Positions 1 through 10,152 of a stretch of 11,300 bases of DNA are shown in pieces. A program made the translations under genes and the position numbers. The stretch is from the IMG/VR virus record IMGVR_UViG_2778261544_000008; one strand, 5' to 3'. This DNA is from a virus (taxonomy: Duplodnaviria; Heunggongvirae; Uroviricota; Caudoviricetes). Position 1 is the first letter of the stretch. Each line of letters begins with the position of its first letter. The notes beneath the pieces are model-generated. The model made no database searches. It was not told where the DNA came from and worked only from the letters and a program-made list of their open reading frames with translations.

Positions 1-249
1 ATGCGCACACAGGTTGTATTGCAAAAATGGGGTAACAGCATTGCCCTTCGACTAACGGGAAACCTTAAAACCGTTCCGGGTTTTTCAGTGGGTGATATCG
101 TCAACGTTGAAATTAGTGAAAAAGGGCTTTTTGTAGAAAAGCCTGCACGCCGTCGCCTGAGTGAAGCCGAACTACTCGCCGGGATAACGCCAGTTACAGC
201 GCACGCTGACGAAATTGCCATCCCATTCAATGAGGAGGTTGATTACTGA
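1..249 (+). CDS. Type II antitoxin, MazE/PemI/ChpS-like (AbrB/SpoVT-type)
   Basis: 82-aa ORF starting MRTQVVLQKWGNSIALRL, which matches the MazE/ChpS N-terminal pattern (K-WGNS-A-R-P). Its stop (TGA 247-249) overlaps the ATG of the next ORF by 1 nt, the usual antitoxin-toxin arrangement. Promoter lies outside the window. Confidence 0.7.
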   Translation: MRTQVVLQKWGNSIALRLTGNLKTVPGFSVGDIVNVEISEKGLFVEKPARRRLSEAELLAGITPVTAHADEIAIPFNEEVDY

Positions 250-593
250 TGTTTGTACCTAAGCGTGGTGATATTTGCTGGCTGGATTTTGAGCCGCAGA
301 AAGGAAAAGAGATCGGAAAGTATCGCCCGGCACTCATACTATCCCATGAGCAATATAACCGACTCACCGGGCTTGTCATATGCTGCCCCATAAGTACGAG
401 CATACGAAATGCTCCCACAGAAGTTCCGGTAACAAATCTGGACGCCCCCAGCGTGGTAGCAACCACACTCATTCAAACCCTTGACTGGCGTCAGCGGAAA
501 GCGCGCTTAATCACAGAGGCAGAAGATGGGGTATTTAATGATGTGCTTGAAAGAGTCATAACCCTGATTGGTGGAGAGCATCTGCTTAAGTAA
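249..593 (+). CDS. Type II toxin, MazF/PemK/ChpB-family endoribonuclease
   Basis: 114-aa ORF with the RGDI-W-DF-P-KG-E----RPA-IL N-terminal signature of the MazF/PemK fold. Translationally coupled to the upstream antitoxin-like ORF. Confidence 0.8.
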   Translation: MFVPKRGDICWLDFEPQKGKEIGKYRPALILSHEQYNRLTGLVICCPISTSIRNAPTEVPVTNLDAPSVVATTLIQTLDWRQRKARLITEAEDGVFNDVLERVITLIGGEHLLK

Positions 594-3067: not shown

Positions 3068-3250
3068 CTATGAAGTTTTCGACTTCCTGCGCTTAGTAAT
3101 GCGTACAAACGACTCAAGCGTACAAAAACAAGCCCCACACTCAATATTATTGCACTGGTAATACGTTCTGTAGATGTTTTGTTCGTGTTCTTCCAACGAA
3201 CGACCACGGGTGCGGGCTGAAGCGCCACAGGCCGGGCAAGGGAAAGACAT
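3068..3250 (-). CDS. ogr: Ogr/Delta-family zinc-finger late-gene transcription activator
   Basis: 60-aa ORF MSFPCPACGASARTRGRS...YYQCNNIECGACFCTLESF. The C-x2-C-x22-C-x4-C spacing and flanking residues match P2 Ogr (MFHCPLC...HQCQNVNCSATFITYES). SD GAGGAG lies upstream. Confidence 0.85.
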   Translation of the reverse strand: MSFPCPACGASARTRGRSLEEHEQNIYRTYYQCNNIECGACFCTLESFVRITKRRKSKTS

Positions 3251-4438: not shown

Positions 4439-5440
4439 TTACTCTGCTGGTTCTTTTTGTTCAGTGAATGCTATGTTAGCTATCGGGTTAAACCTCATGG
4501 CATCTGCCAGATAGTCGGGAGAAAAATGCGCATAAGTCATCGTTTGCTGAATAGTGGCATGGCCCAGAATCCGTTGCAGGGTAACGATGTTTCCCCCGTT
4601 CATCATGAAATGCGTGGCGAACGTATGACGCATCACATGAGTCGCCTGCCCTTTTGGCAAATCAGGCTTCACCTCCTGGAGGATCTCGCGAAACCGGAGA
4701 TAATCGACCTCGTACAGCGGCCCAGTTCGGCAGGTTTTAATCAGCGAGAGCACGGCATCAGACACCGGAACCGAACGGGACTTCCCGTTCTTGGTGTTGA
4801 AGAACGTCACGCGATTACCGACGATATGCTCCCCGCGTAATTCCGTCGCCTCACCCCACCGCGCCCCCGTGGAGAGACACAGAATGGCGACACGACGCGC
4901 ATCACCTTCGAGTCGCTCAAGAAGCCGCTCAATCTCATCATCAGAAAGAAAGGCCATCTCTGTATTCTGAATTTTTAGCTTACGTATACTGCGCACGGGG
5001 TTCGGGTTGTGAAAGACCCCTGCTTCAATCAACACCGTGAACATGGTAGACAGAACGCATAAGTCACGATTAATACTGGACGGCATTAATCCGGCCTGTA
5101 ATTTCTCTGACCGATACTCAAGCATAAATTTTCGCGTCATCTGGTTGGCGCGCGGATCTCCCATTTCACGAATCACTTTCTCCAGCCGGATCCTGTAGGT
5201 ATCGCCGTAAGCCTGATTACACCCGTCAAGCATCCACCATGTATCAAGCAACTCTGATAATCGCCGCCGATCAGCAGGTTTAGCTAGCCATGGGTTATTA
5301 TGGAAATTCTGCAAAACATATTGTTCGAACTTCTCTGCACTTCCTTTCCTGGTAAAAATTTTACGTATCCGTTTGCCGTATGTCCCTTGCGGCCTGATAT
5401 CTAGCAACCATCTTCCATCATCCATCTTTCTGATCGACAT
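4439..5440 (-). CDS. int: Tyrosine recombinase, P2-type integrase
   Basis: Strong similarity along the whole length to my recollection of P2 Int (MSIRKMDDGRWLLDIRPQG..., ILCLSTGARWGEA, ATHVMRHTFATHF, LQRILGHATIQQTMTYAHF, giving the catalytic R, H-x-x-R and Y). Start taken at ATG 5440 (SD AAGGAG upstream), not the upstream in-frame ATG at 5476. Confidence 0.9.
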   Translation of the reverse strand: MSIRKMDDGRWLLDIRPQGTYGKRIRKIFTRKGSAEKFEQYVLQNFHNNPWLAKPADRRRLSELLDTWWMLDGCNQAYGDTYRIRLEKVIREMGDPRANQMTRKFMLEYRSEKLQAGLMPSSINRDLCVLSTMFTVLIEAGVFHNPNPVRSIRKLKIQNTEMAFLSDDEIERLLERLEGDARRVAILCLSTGARWGEATELRGEHIVGNRVTFFNTKNGKSRSVPVSDAVLSLIKTCRTGPLYEVDYLRFREILQEVKPDLPKGQATHVMRHTFATHFMMNGGNIVTLQRILGHATIQQTMTYAHFSPDYLADAMRFNPIANIAFTEQKEPAE

Positions 5441-5442
5441 AC

Positions 5443-8112
5443 TTAAGATCTCTCCTTGTAACTGAATATCCGGCATTTCAGCACTTCCGGCTCTCTGGCC
5501 TCGGCTACTCCTTTTCCGGCGTTTGCCTGTCTGGACACCTCACTACGAATGGTTTTGCGGCCTGTCAAAGGTCGGGAACGCCCGGCTCCGAGCAGCTCAA
5601 TCATTTCGCGATCTGTTCTGATCTCCACGCGGTGAATGGCGGCAGCCTGTGCCAGTTGCGGAATGCTGATAGCAATCCCTTCGCGGCATCCCTTGCCGTA
5701 GTGGTTTACGCCGTATTTTGTTATGCCGTCCAGGAAGTCGAACGCCTCCCAGAACTCCGTCACTTCCGGCAAGTCAGCCGCCGCCGCTTTAACCTGCGCT
5801 GTTGCCATTTGTTCCAGTTCCAGACATGTGGCATCAAGCCATTCATCCGGGATATCAATAACGCATTTCAGCGCCCTGACCAGCGCGATAAGTTGTGCGT
5901 GATTTTTGGCGATGCGGGGATGGCGAATATTTTCGCATCCGCAAAGGCGTTCCGTTTCAGCTGGCGACACTTCCAGGAACGTTTGCATAATCGCCCGTTC
6001 CTGACTTACCGCCCGGTGAATAAAACCCGATACCTTCTCGACGGGGTAGAGTTCCAGCCGTCTCGCCGCCAGTCGGGTATCTGGTGAATGGCGTTTTTTA
6101 TCGGTGTATATGCGTATCAGGCGCTCAATAATTGCCGGTGAGGCGTTTACCCGCGCATTCTGTGCAATCACGATAGCGCCCTTAAAATCCGGATCATAGG
6201 TGTTGTTATTGTTGGCCTTAACACCACGAACACCGATACCGCCGCCGTTATAGAGGCTTTTCAGGTTATCGAAATCAAACGCACCTCTTTTTTGCGCATT
6301 GTCTCCCCGGTCTGCTTCAATCAGAACAACAGGCAATCCGGCGACCTGTCCAAAGGTGCGCTTCCAGCCCGCTTCTGATCCTTTGGTTGGATCAACGCCT
6401 TCGTAGTTGTCACGACCGCACAGCCGCCAGCAAAAATCAATCAATGTTGATTTACCCGTTCCGGGTTCCCCAGTGACTTCAAGGAAAGGGAAGGATTCTT
6501 CTTTATCCCGGATTTGTTCACTGAACAGCGACCCCAGCCAGAAAGCCAGGGTAATAATTCCCTTTTCGCCAAAAGCCAGCCAGAGATCTTCTACCCATGA
6601 CGTTGTAAATTCATCCGTTTTTTTGTAGTTAATCTGTAATGTGGGTTTTTCGCTTAATGGTTTTGCGTTTATGCCATCAATTTCAAAATAATCTTCGTCA
6701 TTGATTTCATAAGTTTTACCCTTGTAAACAGCAATATCATTAAACAGCCATGCCCCAATGGCCTTGTTGTATCCGATAAAATCCTGACCAATAACCTCTT
6801 TTATTGCAGGAAGGTCATTTTTTATTAATGCGTCAAGCTGCGTAGTCGTTCCGGTATAAATGCCGCCTTTTGCTACGTGCAACAGACGTTTTTTAAATTC
6901 AGATGCGGATGTTAATTGCCCTGATGTAAAGGTGTTTTTCACCGTAGCACCATCCGGGAATGTAATGCGGAAGTAATACCATGCTTCATCCGTATCATTG
7001 TTTCGAATGTAATAAAGCGGCACTGGGTTACAGTTTGCGATTTCTTTTACAGCGCCGGATTCCTTGAGTGCAATTTTGCGCGCTTCATCTTCGTCAACAT
7101 TTCGCTCATTAATGACACGCTCAACAGCCTTCATATGGCGCTCAATATCCAGCTTGAACCAGAAAACACGGTTATCAAAGGGAAAATGAAATTCCTTTCG
7201 CTCACGAAAGGAAAACATTATTAGTGCCTTATCTCGTGGAGATTTCGCCAGCAATAAATCACCGTAATAACGGTATCTTTTCACATCATGGCCACGCAGC
7301 TTTCCGGCGACGTGTAAATCATTCCAGTCGCGTTTATTGTTGTTTTTCCCTGGTAACGCCGCTGCCGTTCTCCAGCCGTCTTCGGCGCTGCGTTCTGCAT
7401 GTTTTTTCGCGTAACGCTCACCTGCACGCCCGTTATCCAGCGCCCACACGATAACCGGACGGGGATTATCCCCGCACAGCTTCGCCAGCTCTTCCAGCGC
7501 CTTATCAGGGTAGTTCACGGCAGACATGACAGAAACGGCCGCAATGCCATTCTGGTTAAGACTGATGGCATCAAAGATACCCTCACAAATCCAGATTTCT
7601 TTGGCCTTGCTTAAATCTGCTCCTGGATAAGCCCACCACAGCCCCTTGTAGCTGCCGGAAAAATTCGCCTTGCGTCCGAAGCGTTCCGGGCGATCTATGA
7701 TTCGCTCCCACCACACACCGTCAGCCAGCGTAAAACGCACAGTAGCGGCCTGTTCGCCGCTTTCCTTGTCCTGGTATCGCTCCTGGGTAAATGCTCCCCT
7801 CAGTGGCTCCACAGCAATATTGCGTGCTTCCTGAAGATAAGCTGCCGCCGCTGCGTATGGTTCATCTTTCGTACTGATATAGCGATCTGACCATGATGAA
7901 AACACATCCGGGTAAAGTTCTTTAGTCAGCAGGTCTACACCGCATTTATTTTCACGCCCGCAGTGTACGATGTACGGCCTTTCAAGGCTGGTAAACAACT
8001 CTTTCTTTCCACATTGCGGACAAACACCATACCGGAGGTAGTTATTTTCTTCTTTAAAGTTGTAATCACGAATAAGACGGTTAATAATCTCTTTTCTGGT
8101 GTTATGTTTCAT
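5443..8112 (-). CDS. Primase-helicase, P4 alpha-like (zinc ribbon + TOPRIM primase + P-loop helicase)
   Basis: N-terminal zinc-binding CPQCGKK...HCGRENKC, a TOPRIM-like segment EIWICEGIFDAISL...WALDNGRAG, and Walker A VTGEPGTGKST with a downstream VVLIEAD. ATG at 8112 is preferred; an in-frame GTG at 8130 is possible. The stop is 2 nt before the int start. Confidence 0.9.
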   Translation of the reverse strand: MKHNTRKEIINRLIRDYNFKEENNYLRYGVCPQCGKKELFTSLERPYIVHCGRENKCGVDLLTKELYPDVFSSWSDRYISTKDEPYAAAAAYLQEARNIAVEPLRGAFTQERYQDKESGEQAATVRFTLADGVWWERIIDRPERFGRKANFSGSYKGLWWAYPGADLSKAKEIWICEGIFDAISLNQNGIAAVSVMSAVNYPDKALEELAKLCGDNPRPVIVWALDNGRAGERYAKKHAERSAEDGWRTAAALPGKNNNKRDWNDLHVAGKLRGHDVKRYRYYGDLLLAKSPRDKALIMFSFRERKEFHFPFDNRVFWFKLDIERHMKAVERVINERNVDEDEARKIALKESGAVKEIANCNPVPLYYIRNNDTDEAWYYFRITFPDGATVKNTFTSGQLTSASEFKKRLLHVAKGGIYTGTTTQLDALIKNDLPAIKEVIGQDFIGYNKAIGAWLFNDIAVYKGKTYEINDEDYFEIDGINAKPLSEKPTLQINYKKTDEFTTSWVEDLWLAFGEKGIITLAFWLGSLFSEQIRDKEESFPFLEVTGEPGTGKSTLIDFCWRLCGRDNYEGVDPTKGSEAGWKRTFGQVAGLPVVLIEADRGDNAQKRGAFDFDNLKSLYNGGGIGVRGVKANNNNTYDPDFKGAIVIAQNARVNASPAIIERLIRIYTDKKRHSPDTRLAARRLELYPVEKVSGFIHRAVSQERAIMQTFLEVSPAETERLCGCENIRHPRIAKNHAQLIALVRALKCVIDIPDEWLDATCLELEQMATAQVKAAAADLPEVTEFWEAFDFLDGITKYGVNHYGKGCREGIAISIPQLAQAAAIHRVEIRTDREMIELLGAGRSRPLTGRKTIRSEVSRQANAGKGVAEAREPEVLKCRIFSYKERS

Positions 8113-8124
8113 ATATAAATCCCC

Positions 8125-8149
8125 CCCCACTGCACCTTTTGCAGTGGGG
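8125..8149. promoter_or_regulatory. Perfect 9-bp stem-loop just upstream of the primase start; attenuator or terminator-like
   Basis: CCCCACTGC-acctttt-GCAGTGGGG. On the plus strand it is followed by TTTTTATTAATT; on the minus strand it precedes the primase SD. It lies in the 43-nt gap between the 101-aa ORF and the primase gene. Confidence 0.4.
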
Positions 8150-9117: not shown

Positions 9118-9283
9118 GGCACGCCTCCCGGACACGGATACGAGCAACAAAGACCAGACGGGATGCCGGAAGCATGGCGCGCGCTTCGCGCTCACTGGCA
9201 GCGGTAACGGTATGAAGGCGAATATTTTTACCGTGGCACTGCATAAAGCGCCAGATAAAATCAGGGCGTGTTGATATAGCCAT
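9110..9283 (-). CDS. Icd-like small protein (P4-type immunity-region ORF)
   Basis: 57-aa ORF starting at ATG 9283 with SD GAGGAG (MAISTRPDFIWRFMQCHGKNIRLHTVTAASEREARAMLP...). It resembles small proteins annotated as Icd-like in P4-type elements, by recollection only. The longer 175-aa frame upstream has no SD. Confidence 0.4.
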   Translation of the reverse strand: MAISTRPDFIWRFMQCHGKNIRLHTVTAASEREARAMLPASRLVFVARIRVREACHV

Positions 9284-9535
9284 TTTGGCGGCTCCTCTAA
9301 CTGATTTACGGAGTCTCGCCAGCACGCTGCTAAACATGGTGGCGGGACGTAACAGGGTTAGCAGACTGGCGTTAGAGAAACCAGCGAGCGCAAAGGCTCC
9401 CCCATTACGCCCCGCCATAATACGGGGTAGGGTGGAATTACGGGCACAAAAAAACCGCATTACGGAAATATAGCGGCTACCCGCTCTAACAATCAGGCTG
9501 CTAAACCCGGCACCTGTTTTATGAGGTGCGGGCAA

Positions 9536-9565
9536 ACGATACGCCATGACAAAAAAGCGAGTCAA
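9536..9565 (-). promoter_or_regulatory. Candidate sigma70 promoter for the minus-strand early operon
   Basis: On the minus strand: TTGACT (9565-9560), 18-nt spacer, TATCGT (9541-9536). It would start a long leader (~240 nt) before the first SD-equipped ORF at 9283. Confidence 0.3.
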
Positions 9566-9699
9566 GAAAAATTGCAAATTATTTTGGCGATATTGCGCTG
9601 ACTTATTGATTTTTAAGAGTAAAAAAGTCATTATCATTTCTGCCTATTGTTTCTTATTGTTGGTTTCAGGTGCATTAAATGCACATCCTTGACTGGTTG

Positions 9700-9731
9700 G
9701 CTCGCTAGTTTTAGCGAGCTTCTTTTTTTTT
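9700..9731 (+). terminator. Rho-independent terminator, plus-strand orientation
   Basis: Perfect 8-bp stem GCTCGCTA / TAGCGAGC with loop GTTT, followed by TTCTTTTTTTTT on the plus strand. No annotated plus-strand gene feeds into it. Confidence 0.55.
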
Positions 9732-9831
9732 GCTCTGCTGTCAGTACTTGGCCTCCTTTCCCCACATGTAGCAATACGTTCAGATCAGTAAGTTTTGCCA
9801 CCCAGTGATGGACGCAATAAACCACCAACGC

Positions 9832-10152
9832 TTATTCAACTCTGGCGCTACCGGATTCCCTCTCCCTTTTCTTTTTGGCGTTTTCGTATGGGTTATTCAC
9901 TTTGGCAATAACTGGCGGATTACGCAGCCACCACAAAACATCACTTAACAGCCAGGTACATGAGCAACGCCCCAAAGAGTGACGGGGAGGAAAAGCACCG
10001 ATCTTCTCCAGTTCCCAGCGCCGGGAGCGTGAAAGCGTGGTCATCTTTTTACACTTCTCTTCCCTGATGCGTTCTTCGCAGTCAAAACCATACTCGGCGA
10101 GTATGGTGCGGCGCTGTTCTGGAGTTGGTGGAATGAATGCGGATTGAGTCAT
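9832..10152 (-). CDS. alpA: AlpA/Vis-family DNA-binding regulator (excisionase-like HTH)
   Basis: 106-aa ORF with SD GGGGGA. The central segment LSRSRRWELEKIGAFPPRHSLGRCSCTWLLSDVLWWL fits the AlpA/Vis pattern (LSRST-YR...G-FP-...LG-R-V-W...V--W). Confidence 0.6.
   Translation of the reverse strand: MTQSAFIPPTPEQRRTILAEYGFDCEERIREEKCKKMTTLSRSRRWELEKIGAFPPRHSLGRCSCTWLLSDVLWWLRNPPVIAKVNNPYENAKKKRERESGSARVE

Follow-up and report, generated by a model that had tools for sequence, protein, structure and literature searches.

The immunity of P4 is the textbook example of an RNA repressor that acts by transcription termination. Other phage regulatory regions contain short cis-encoded antisense RNAs that have their own promoter and intrinsic terminator, as for sar in the immI region of P22 and OOP in lambda, and the target of the sar RNA is the ribosome-binding region of ant. 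The window analysed here is the whole 11,300-nucleotide (nt) stretch of IMG/VR virus record IMGVR_UViG_2778261544_000008 (Caudoviricetes), and corresponds approximately to a complete P4-like satellite of Escherichia coli, being 99% identical to an element located between hpt and gcd in strain 08_3323 (NZ_CP074914). Between alpA and the immunity-leader promoter of this satellite, the plus strand carries a palindrome and an intrinsic terminator, which an initial annotation made from the letters of the sequence had described as an orphan. We propose that the terminator most likely ends a conserved, unannotated RNA gene of about 90 bases that belongs to the satellite. The nearest functional relatives of this unit are P22 sar and lambda OOP, while the nearest genetic relative is the P4 immunity region, which is without such a unit.

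The P4 immunity region is composed of the promoter PLE, the elements seqA, CI RNA and seqC, the nested eta/kil frame, and the upstream late promoter PLL with vis (PMC10111431). As outlined in that source's summary of Forti et al. (1999), translation of eta is coupled to that of the alpA homologue vis, only the upstream late promoter allows full-length Eta to be made, and translation of eta prevents CI/seqA-dependent termination. The window has comparable parts, i.e., an isrK/seqA-like element, a C4/CI RNA, an Icd-like (Kil-type) domain, a long nested open reading frame (ORF), and an upstream AlpA/Vis gene. The arrangement differs in one region. The eta ORF of P4 overlaps vis, and the approximately 70 bp between vis and PLE hold no plus-strand terminator and are too short for such a unit, whereas the alpA stop codon in the window lies 195 nt upstream of the long ORF start, and the gap is occupied by the plus-strand unit.

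With sar and OOP, the unit has in common its length of roughly 70–90 nt, a small promoter that is presumably constitutive, termination at an intrinsic site, a direction that converges with that of a major operon, and perfect complementarity to the mRNA of a regulatory gene. There is no sequence or Rfam relationship, however, and the host element in our case is a P4-like satellite. Instead of the ribosome-binding region of ant, the predicted counterpart in the window is that of an eta-like ORF. To our knowledge, translation that overrides an RNA-based immunity is not an antisense target of either sar or OOP. The Rfam families C4 (RF01695), isrK (RF01394) and c4-a1b1 (RF03163) all map to the same locus, but 110–300 nt away and on the opposite strand, with no overlap with the unit and no match to it. 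As for the Hfq-dependent RNAs AgvB, AsxR, Esr41 and IsrK of pathogenic E. coli, these are likewise short, terminator-ended and encoded on mobile elements, but they reside in lambdoid prophages or SpLE1 and act in trans, and no correspondence with the unit in sequence or position was found. No Rfam 15 family reaches its gathering threshold in the unit; the best match, suhB/mmgR (E = 0.8, 21.7 bits against 41), probably reflects the arrangement of a stem-loop followed by a terminator. A description of the unit was found neither in Rfam nor in the full-text literature, covering P4 immunity, sequence strings, the Esr41, EcOnc and Pas papers, and Table S2 of Tree et al. 2014. In the inspected annotations of the Prokaryotic Genome Annotation Pipeline (PGAP), the long frame is named only "Icd-like" (173–175 amino acids, aa), and no RNA genes are listed at the locus.

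Architecture and conservation of the plus-strand unit

Direct reading of the sequence bears out the 8-bp stem, the 12-nt tail and the palindrome at the positions assigned by the initial annotation. The 15-bp palindrome GTGCATTAAATGCAC is present as a single copy in the window, and is followed by the hairpin GGCTCGCTA/GTTT/TAGCGAGCT at 9699–9720 and then by TTCTTTTTTTTT up to position 9731. The terminator stem contains 8 Watson–Crick pairs, or 9 pairs when one G-U is included, with five G-C pairs and a 4-nt loop, and 11 of the 12 nucleotides in the tail are T. A purpose-written terminator finder assigns −12 kcal/mol to the 8-bp core hairpin, and the fold of the plus-strand RNA between 9660 and 9735 returns exactly both hairpins (−22 kcal/mol, z = −2.7). 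Read on the minus strand, the terminator hairpin precedes CAACCAGTCAAGG, which lacks a T-run, and the terminator is therefore one-way and specific for the plus strand. The region thus combines a G+C-rich stem of at least 5 bp and a short loop with a U-tract on the transcribed strand only. The stem and the one-sided T-run also support the earlier view of a transcript convergent with alpA, and the credible nearby genes are indeed all on the minus strand.

Taken singly, neither the palindrome nor the terminator is beyond chance. The window contains 27 terminator-like sites (12.3 ± 4.1 in shuffles), and approximately 0.7 palindromes with 7-bp arms are expected per 11.3 kb (11300/4^7). The significance of the two elements derives instead from their conservation in relatives, for which two alignments were used: a first with 12 E. 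coli relatives, and a second with 30 distinct sequences fetched with a 24-nt leader-promoter probe that does not touch the hairpins.

Because a conserved predicted promoter is found upstream in all relatives, the terminator is not an orphan. The predicted sigma-70 promoter is placed about 65 nt upstream of the hairpin, so that promoter and terminator delimit a self-contained unit of about 90 nt (Table 1). The spacer between the -35 and -10 boxes is 17 bp in all 30 sequences, and the hexamers overlap codons 1–9 of the long ORF on the minus strand. In a promoter scan, the TTGATT-17-CATAAT version of the relatives scores 9/12 and is flagged, whereas the version with CATTAT in the window scores 8/12 and is not. 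The predicted RNA begins with a U/G-rich 5' tail, followed by stem-loop 1, an invariant linker, and the terminator hairpin. We infer the firing of the promoter, the exact 5' end and the regulatory effect of the RNA from the sequence. The transcript had initially been thought to run across the immunity region; its predicted start is instead upstream of the isrK/C4 leader promoter, and it runs away from the leader. That account did not include the Rfam isrK and C4 elements or the 175-codon ORF beginning within the promoter. Another promoter-like site on the plus strand, at 9546–9573, overlaps the leader promoter and reads ATGACA-16-AATATT in relatives, with AAAATT in the window; if active, this site would give an RNA of about 150 nt that uses the same terminator and spans the entire start region of the long ORF.

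Table 1. Coordinates of the plus-strand unit and of the surrounding immunity region in the window
Feature	Position	Strand	Details
-35 box TTGATT	9606–9611	+	Same in 29/30 distinct relatives including types B and C; TTGATA in L030
-10 box	9629–9634	+	CATTAT in the window, CATAAT in the 29 others; complement holds ATG#2 (9631–9629)
Predicted non-coding RNA of ~90 nt, type A	9641–9731	+	5' end inferred from position of -10 box
Stem-loop 1 (palindrome)	9670–9684	+	Stem GUGCA(U)/(A)UGCAC; 5-bp core invariant in type A
Linker TCCTTGACTGGTT	9686–9698	+	Predicted single-stranded; least variable part of unit; kept in type C
Intrinsic terminator	9699–9731	+	8–9 bp stem, 4-nt loop, TTC(T6–9) tail of varying length among relatives
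Eta/kil-like nested ORF, 175 codons	9110–9637	−	ATG#1 at 9637, ATG#2 at 9631; in-frame stop at 9646–9644 just upstream
Shine–Dalgarno-like AGGCA of long ORF	9641–9645	−	Complementary to first bases of predicted RNA; GGGA in type B
Immunity-leader promoter, PLE-like	9536–9565	−	TTGACT-18-TATCGT; back-to-back with plus-strand promoter
isrK/seqA-like leader element, own terminator	9448–9529	−	Rfam RF01394, 52.2 bits (gathering score 50)
C4 / P4 CI-type immunity RNA	9335–9422	−	Rfam RF01695, 72.9 bits, E = 4.7e-13
alpA (Vis-like)	9832–10152	−	Pfam PF05930, E = 3.3e-7

A plus-strand hairpin with a T-run is present 65–90 nt downstream of the promoter in 30/30 sequences, which can be divided into three types. 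Type A, to which the window belongs, comprises 22 sequences. The seven type B sequences have an unrelated body and an unrelated terminator, CGGCCCG(C)..GCGGGCCG followed by TTTTCTTTT, which is situated approximately 10 nt from the stop codon of a capsid gene, at the place where type A has alpA as its neighbour. Type C is represented by one of the 30 sequences, and lacks stem-loop 1 while linker and terminator are kept; the locus L046 looks alike. The palindrome of stem-loop 1 is consequently confined to type A, being absent from types B and C. Promoter and terminator are thus retained even when the body sequence differs, as in types B and C, or when the neighbouring gene is one other than alpA. 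Recombination breakpoints near 9638 and 9775 flank the RNA body on both sides. In these alignments, the unit keeps its position while its sequence is replaced. The initial annotation had left it to be seen whether the hairpin is conserved in related elements; every relative has a plus-strand terminator, an unrelated one in type B, and a T-run of 6–9 T after TTC is kept in all sequences of types A and C.

Within type A, diversity is 0–0.05 across 9669–9731, from stem-loop 1 to the T-tract, compared with 0.11 in the 5' part and 0.13–0.24 downstream, and reaches its lowest value in the unit, 0.007, in the linker. The stems are invariant except for the loop-proximal pair, which is A-U, G-U or A.C. 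The A to G change at the top of the stem, seen in many type A sequences, preserves pairing as G-U on the plus strand only. Similarly, the type B sequence L023 has a U-G pair in the middle of the stem that would be a C.A mismatch on the minus strand, and G-U pairs and loop changes occur in five type B sequences. The G-U pairs, together with the side on which the T-tract is found, indicate that the plus strand is the functional one. On this evidence, we consider it probable that the unit is a real transcribed RNA.

At an identity of at least 90%, type A was found in 57 of 5426 complete E. coli genomes, in each case chromosomally, and not in the plasmids of PLSDB; type B was found in 9 genomes. 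A search of the phage collection with 9440–9840 matched only the isrK part of the query, and a primase search of the genome contigs gave 8 loci, 7 of which are too distant to align.

According to the initial annotation, the palindrome might serve as a site for AlpA or the 350-aa protein, and so insulate alpA from the early operon at the level of the DNA. A perfect dyad between two regulatory regions would suit such an operator, but the perfect state is that of a minority, most relatives reading GTGCAC..ATGCAC, and types B and C lack the dyad although they keep the remainder of the unit. Operator sites are usually repeated, but the window has only this one copy, and the chance expectation given above is close to one such dyad per window. 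A variable dyad between the two promoters (9583–9600, described below) is a better candidate. An operator function for the palindrome is therefore very improbable. Because the perfect dyad occurs only in a minority of relatives, the palindrome is best read as an RNA stem-loop rather than a symmetric protein site. The loop is UAA in the window, closed by a 6-bp stem, and CUAAA in most relatives, closed by a 5-bp stem; presumably, the (U/C)UAA sequence corresponds to the YUNR U-turn motif of antisense-RNA recognition loops.

The hairpin could alternatively be the terminator of a small protein gene. The 48 residues encoded by the ORF at 9546–9692 are basic at the N-terminus and include a hydrophobic stretch, and the ORF stops shortly before the terminator. 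In most relatives, however, the sequence GCT GAG TGA introduces an in-frame stop at codon 24, and the ORF has no Shine–Dalgarno (SD) sequence and an ATG that falls inside the leader promoter, which makes this assignment hardly credible. A 9-aa ORF at 9679–9708 was also considered and rejected, as its stop codon or frame is lost in relatives; neither of the two frames is kept open. The operator and the small protein are the explanations most directly contradicted by the evidence.

A different possibility is that the RNA acts in trans, probably with Hfq, as a satellite small RNA (sRNA) with the linker CAUCCUUGACUGGUUGG or the U/G-rich 5' tail as seed and mRNAs of the host or a helper phage as targets, in which case its position beside the immunity leader would be incidental. 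Prophage-encoded sRNAs of similar size are common in E. coli (PMC4104026), which counts in favour, and the architecture is typical, in that a single-stranded 5' region rich in U leads into an internal hairpin and then into a terminator whose U tail is long. The linker, moreover, is the most conserved part of the unit, which a pure cis-antisense role would leave unexplained. Against this stands the replacement of the body in types B and C, and of the linker as well in type B, while position, promoter and terminator are kept. Furthermore, when the first 58 nt were compared by RNAduplex with the window and phage P2, using both strands of each, no duplex in either scored better than with shuffled queries. 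The best value for P2 was −40.3, compared with shuffle minima of −38.7 to −48.2, and the best non-self match in the window (~490–478, minus strand) is a 10-mer expected by chance. We therefore regard a trans-acting sRNA as unlikely. A sponge for C4 was rejected on inspection, since the RNA is not complementary to the C4 loops, and since the immunity loops vary among relatives while the RNA does not. The linker motif CCTTGACTGGTTGG recurs on the minus strand at 703–690 (13/14 positions), inside the capsid gene, in the same 5'–3' sense but on the other DNA strand, and at 9811–9798 (11/14), just past the alpA stop codon. Four matches with three mismatches or fewer are found (0.72 expected), and the corresponding RNAs would be same-sense, not complementary.

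An analogous hairpin in a second lineage

A second, independent lineage, comprising L043–L045, L059–85 and many IMG/VR loci found with an Icd-like profile, shows the same geometry on the plus strand. A -10 box, TATGAT, is followed after 10–11 nt by CAT, which is complementary to the start codon of the upstream "Icd-like" coding sequence, and then by AACGGCTCC (the SD complement), TTGTTGGTTAGA / TAGTTTACGTTGTTGGTTAGA, a 14-bp hairpin, and the T-run TTTGCTCTTTG. In this hairpin, compensatory double changes are seen for 8 of the 14 pairs, and 95.6% of the cells are paired. None of 500 shuffles reaches the observed values, and slid controls are 39–57% paired. A tally of pair types gives about 26 G-U or U-G pairs in 180 cells, and because of these, only the strand antisense to the ORF can form the paired structure. 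The lineage-2 version is present in 1090 of 5426 E. coli genomes, including O157:H7, and shares TTGTTGGTT with type A; on the minus strand this reads AACCAACAA, just before the SD sequence.

Some lineage-2 elements contain a tandem duplication of the isrK and C4 leader, with two C4 matches (1874–2059 and 1396–1600 in L043). In O157:H7 (L096, beside roxA/pepT), the lineage-2 hairpin is located in an element resembling a phage-inducible chromosomal island (PICI) with a PerC-family regulator. We take Sp7 to be the Sakai counterpart of this O157:H7 element.

More generally, an opposite-strand terminator was found in the equivalent 520-nt interval at 31 of 47 Icd-like loci, where about 14 would be expected from the calibration of the terminator finder on the loci (0.67 sites per kb per strand). 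The positions of these terminators cluster by lineage, and the hairpins are unrelated in distant lineages.

The recurrence of a plus-strand terminator in every arrangement, whatever the next gene, and at only about 10 nt from the capsid stop codon in type B, is also what would be expected if the RNA itself had no function and the hairpin were a safety terminator, shielding alpA, integrase or capsid genes from antisense leakage off the divergent promoter region. A body sequence that can be swapped agrees with this explanation as well. It does not account for the higher conservation of hairpin 1 and the linker relative to the flanks in type A, nor for a dedicated promoter with a fixed spacer 65–90 nt upstream in 30/30 sequences, nor for the covarying hairpin right beside the ORF start in lineage 2. 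That the unit is nothing but a safety terminator is accordingly improbable in our judgement.

The overlapped eta-like frame and a possible antisense role

The long minus-strand ORF that the promoter overlaps starts approximately 105 nt upstream of the leader transcription start, and its frame passes through isrK and C4 to an internal in-frame ATG at 9283, from which a short Icd-like protein would be translated. It has 175 codons in nearly all relatives, across several variants of the immunity loops, the two altered ones differing near the C-terminus only. Between 9433 and 9631 (199 nt), the 30 sequences have no stop codon in the frame of the long ORF compared with 2–7 in each of the five other frames. 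NCBIfam NF033153 matches the C-terminus of both this ORF and the P4 eta/kil ORF (8812–8168 in L012). The layout is thereby that of P4 eta/kil, with a start upstream of the leader promoter and an open frame that spans seqA/CI and continues in phase with an Icd/Kil-type ORF. Judged from layout and openness, the long ORF is real and eta-like, the latter term resting on architecture and the C-terminal domain because the N-terminal part is dissimilar to P4 Eta.

Since the promoter sits in the first codons of the long ORF, the predicted RNA would be antisense to its ribosome-binding region and 5' leader, with complementarity to the SD sequence (9645–9641) that depends on the predicted 5' end. No minus-strand terminator-like site was found between alpA and the long ORF (9566–9831 scanned). 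The role we tentatively favour, while rating it somewhat below an even chance, is that of a cis-antisense RNA, about 90 nt long, which would prevent the eta-like frame from being translated on read-through transcripts and thereby keep immunity tight. In the lysogen, the RNA made from 9606–9634 would extend from about 9641 to the terminator and pair with read-through transcripts arriving from the direction of alpA or, in type B, from the capsid operon. Such pairing would occlude the ribosome-binding site of the long ORF and probably create a substrate for RNase III, and convergent transcription would add interference. With the long ORF untranslated, C4-dependent termination in the leader would stay effective. 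Strong late transcription from upstream might then outrun or occlude the small promoter, after which the long ORF would be translated through the leader and the replication genes would escape immunity, as for eta in P4. Of the earlier proposal that the region insulates alpA, the part that agrees with this model is that transcription from the alpA side is kept apart from the early or immunity operon, while the palindrome as a DNA-level site is not supported. If correct, the model would explain how lineages without vis–eta coupling prevent leaky upstream transcription from triggering replication.

Several observations weigh against an antisense RNA gene of this kind. Covariation is almost lacking in type A, because the stems are invariant. 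A purely cis-antisense role would not call for a linker that is nearly invariant. For the -10 and -35 boxes, the overlapping long ORF confounds the conservation, since the CAT of the -10 box is also the start codon of that ORF, and the window itself has the weakest -10 box of the 30 sequences (CATTAT, 8/12 overall), the one that the scan leaves unflagged. The 5' end of the RNA comes from prediction alone, and a start near 9641 would cover the SD sequence and leave the AUG uncovered; in type B, the RNA would barely reach the SD sequence. As regards the target, a BLASTP comparison of the N-terminal part of the long ORF with P4 Eta revealed no detectable similarity. Finally, Table S2 of Tree et al. 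2014 lists no Hfq-bound sRNA annotated to Sp7.

The conserved hairpins might instead belong to the minus-strand mRNA. A 13-codon upstream ORF, MHLKPTIRNNRQK, is present on this strand at 9675–9634, and its TGA stop codon (9636–9634) overlaps ATG#1 as ATGA; it starts with GTG where the palindrome is imperfect, and its peptide is not conserved. Together with both hairpins, it could control or couple translation of the long ORF, the plus-strand terminator being a by-product. In every type A sequence the upstream ORF is open and terminates at the long ORF start or 2 nt short of it, the T/C polymorphism that makes the palindrome also toggles its start from ATG to GTG, and the CA-rich AACCAACAA precedes the SD sequence in both lineages. 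On the other hand, the hairpin and U-tract form a terminator on the plus strand, and the G-U and U-G pairs of L023 and of the approximately 26/180 lineage-2 cells become C.A and A.C mismatches on the minus strand. We know of no minus-strand role for an A-tract before a hairpin. The upstream ORF is also not kept in types B and C, and has about 5 synonymous to 8 non-synonymous substitutions. A minus-strand leader function is in our view quite unlikely.

If the cis-antisense RNA is correct, elements that a fifth of E. coli genomes carry would gain an unannotated RNA gene, and a systematic pattern in their annotation would be corrected. A wider and more doubtful extension, which we consider rather unlikely as it stands, is that P4-like and PICI-like satellites with C4/CI immunity have a second RNA layer, in which at least three non-homologous antisense RNAs, with promoters in the first codons of the eta-like ORF, gate the translation that overrides immunity. 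The switch from lysogeny to replication would then be set by convergent late transcription against the antisense RNA, and about 20% of complete E. coli genomes, O157:H7 among them, would have one version of this arrangement.

Neighbouring features of the satellite

On the minus strand, the order of elements is the 350-aa gene, alpA, the intergenic stretch, the isrK/seqA-like element, the C4/CI-type RNA, and the Icd-like gene with small ORFs, followed by a P4-alpha-type primase, a second recombinase, Ogr/Delta, and a capsid gene of the P2 family. The terminator and palindrome are hence located between alpA and the leader promoter, whose predicted start is the first base of the isrK match (9529). 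A match to c4-a1b1 at 9542–9490 (RF03163, 33.8 bits, below the gathering score) overlaps the isrK element. The isrK/a1b1 loops (9448–9542) occur in at least five variants among otherwise near-identical relatives, CTCTAACAAT, TTGATTGTT, TTTGTCAAT, TTCTACTAT and TTTGGTATT, which presumably represent different immunity specificities. The dyad at 9583–9600, between the back-to-back promoters, is variable with invariant flanks, and reads GGCGATATTGCGC in the window, TGCGCGATTGCGC or TGCTCACTTGCGC in relatives, and the perfect GCGCAATTGCGC in L008. It is a better operator candidate than the palindrome, and its versions may be specificity variants.

At the alpA stop codon, a minus-strand hairpin (9847–9823, AAUAAGC..GUUUAUU) shows G-C to G-U and loop changes in relatives, and has no T-run on either strand. 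The Ogr/Delta zinc-finger gene is encoded at 3068–3250 (minus strand); a search upstream of alpA for the TGT-N12-ACA (Ogr/Delta) site gave one match, which is inside the 350-aa gene and no more than expected by chance.

The second recombinase, of the tyrosine type (4439–5476, minus strand), is directly downstream of the primase. The satellite has its own P2-family major capsid gene (PF05125; 637–2618, minus strand) with a 236-aa neighbour, and the capsid module adjoins the immunity leader in the type B relatives. At the left end (1–593, plus strand) there is a toxin–antitoxin pair with a PemK/MazF toxin. The strongest hairpin of the window, CCCCACTGCA/CCTTT/TGCAGTGGGG at 8125–8149 (plus strand, −18.7 kcal/mol), is followed on the plus strand by TTTTTATT, and is situated at the primase start (GTG 8130 / ATG 8112), past a 101-aa ORF, flanked by an A-tract and, on its opposite side, by a T-rich run. 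This hairpin may function as a bidirectional terminator or attenuator, or may represent a second case of an opposite-strand terminator beside a start codon.

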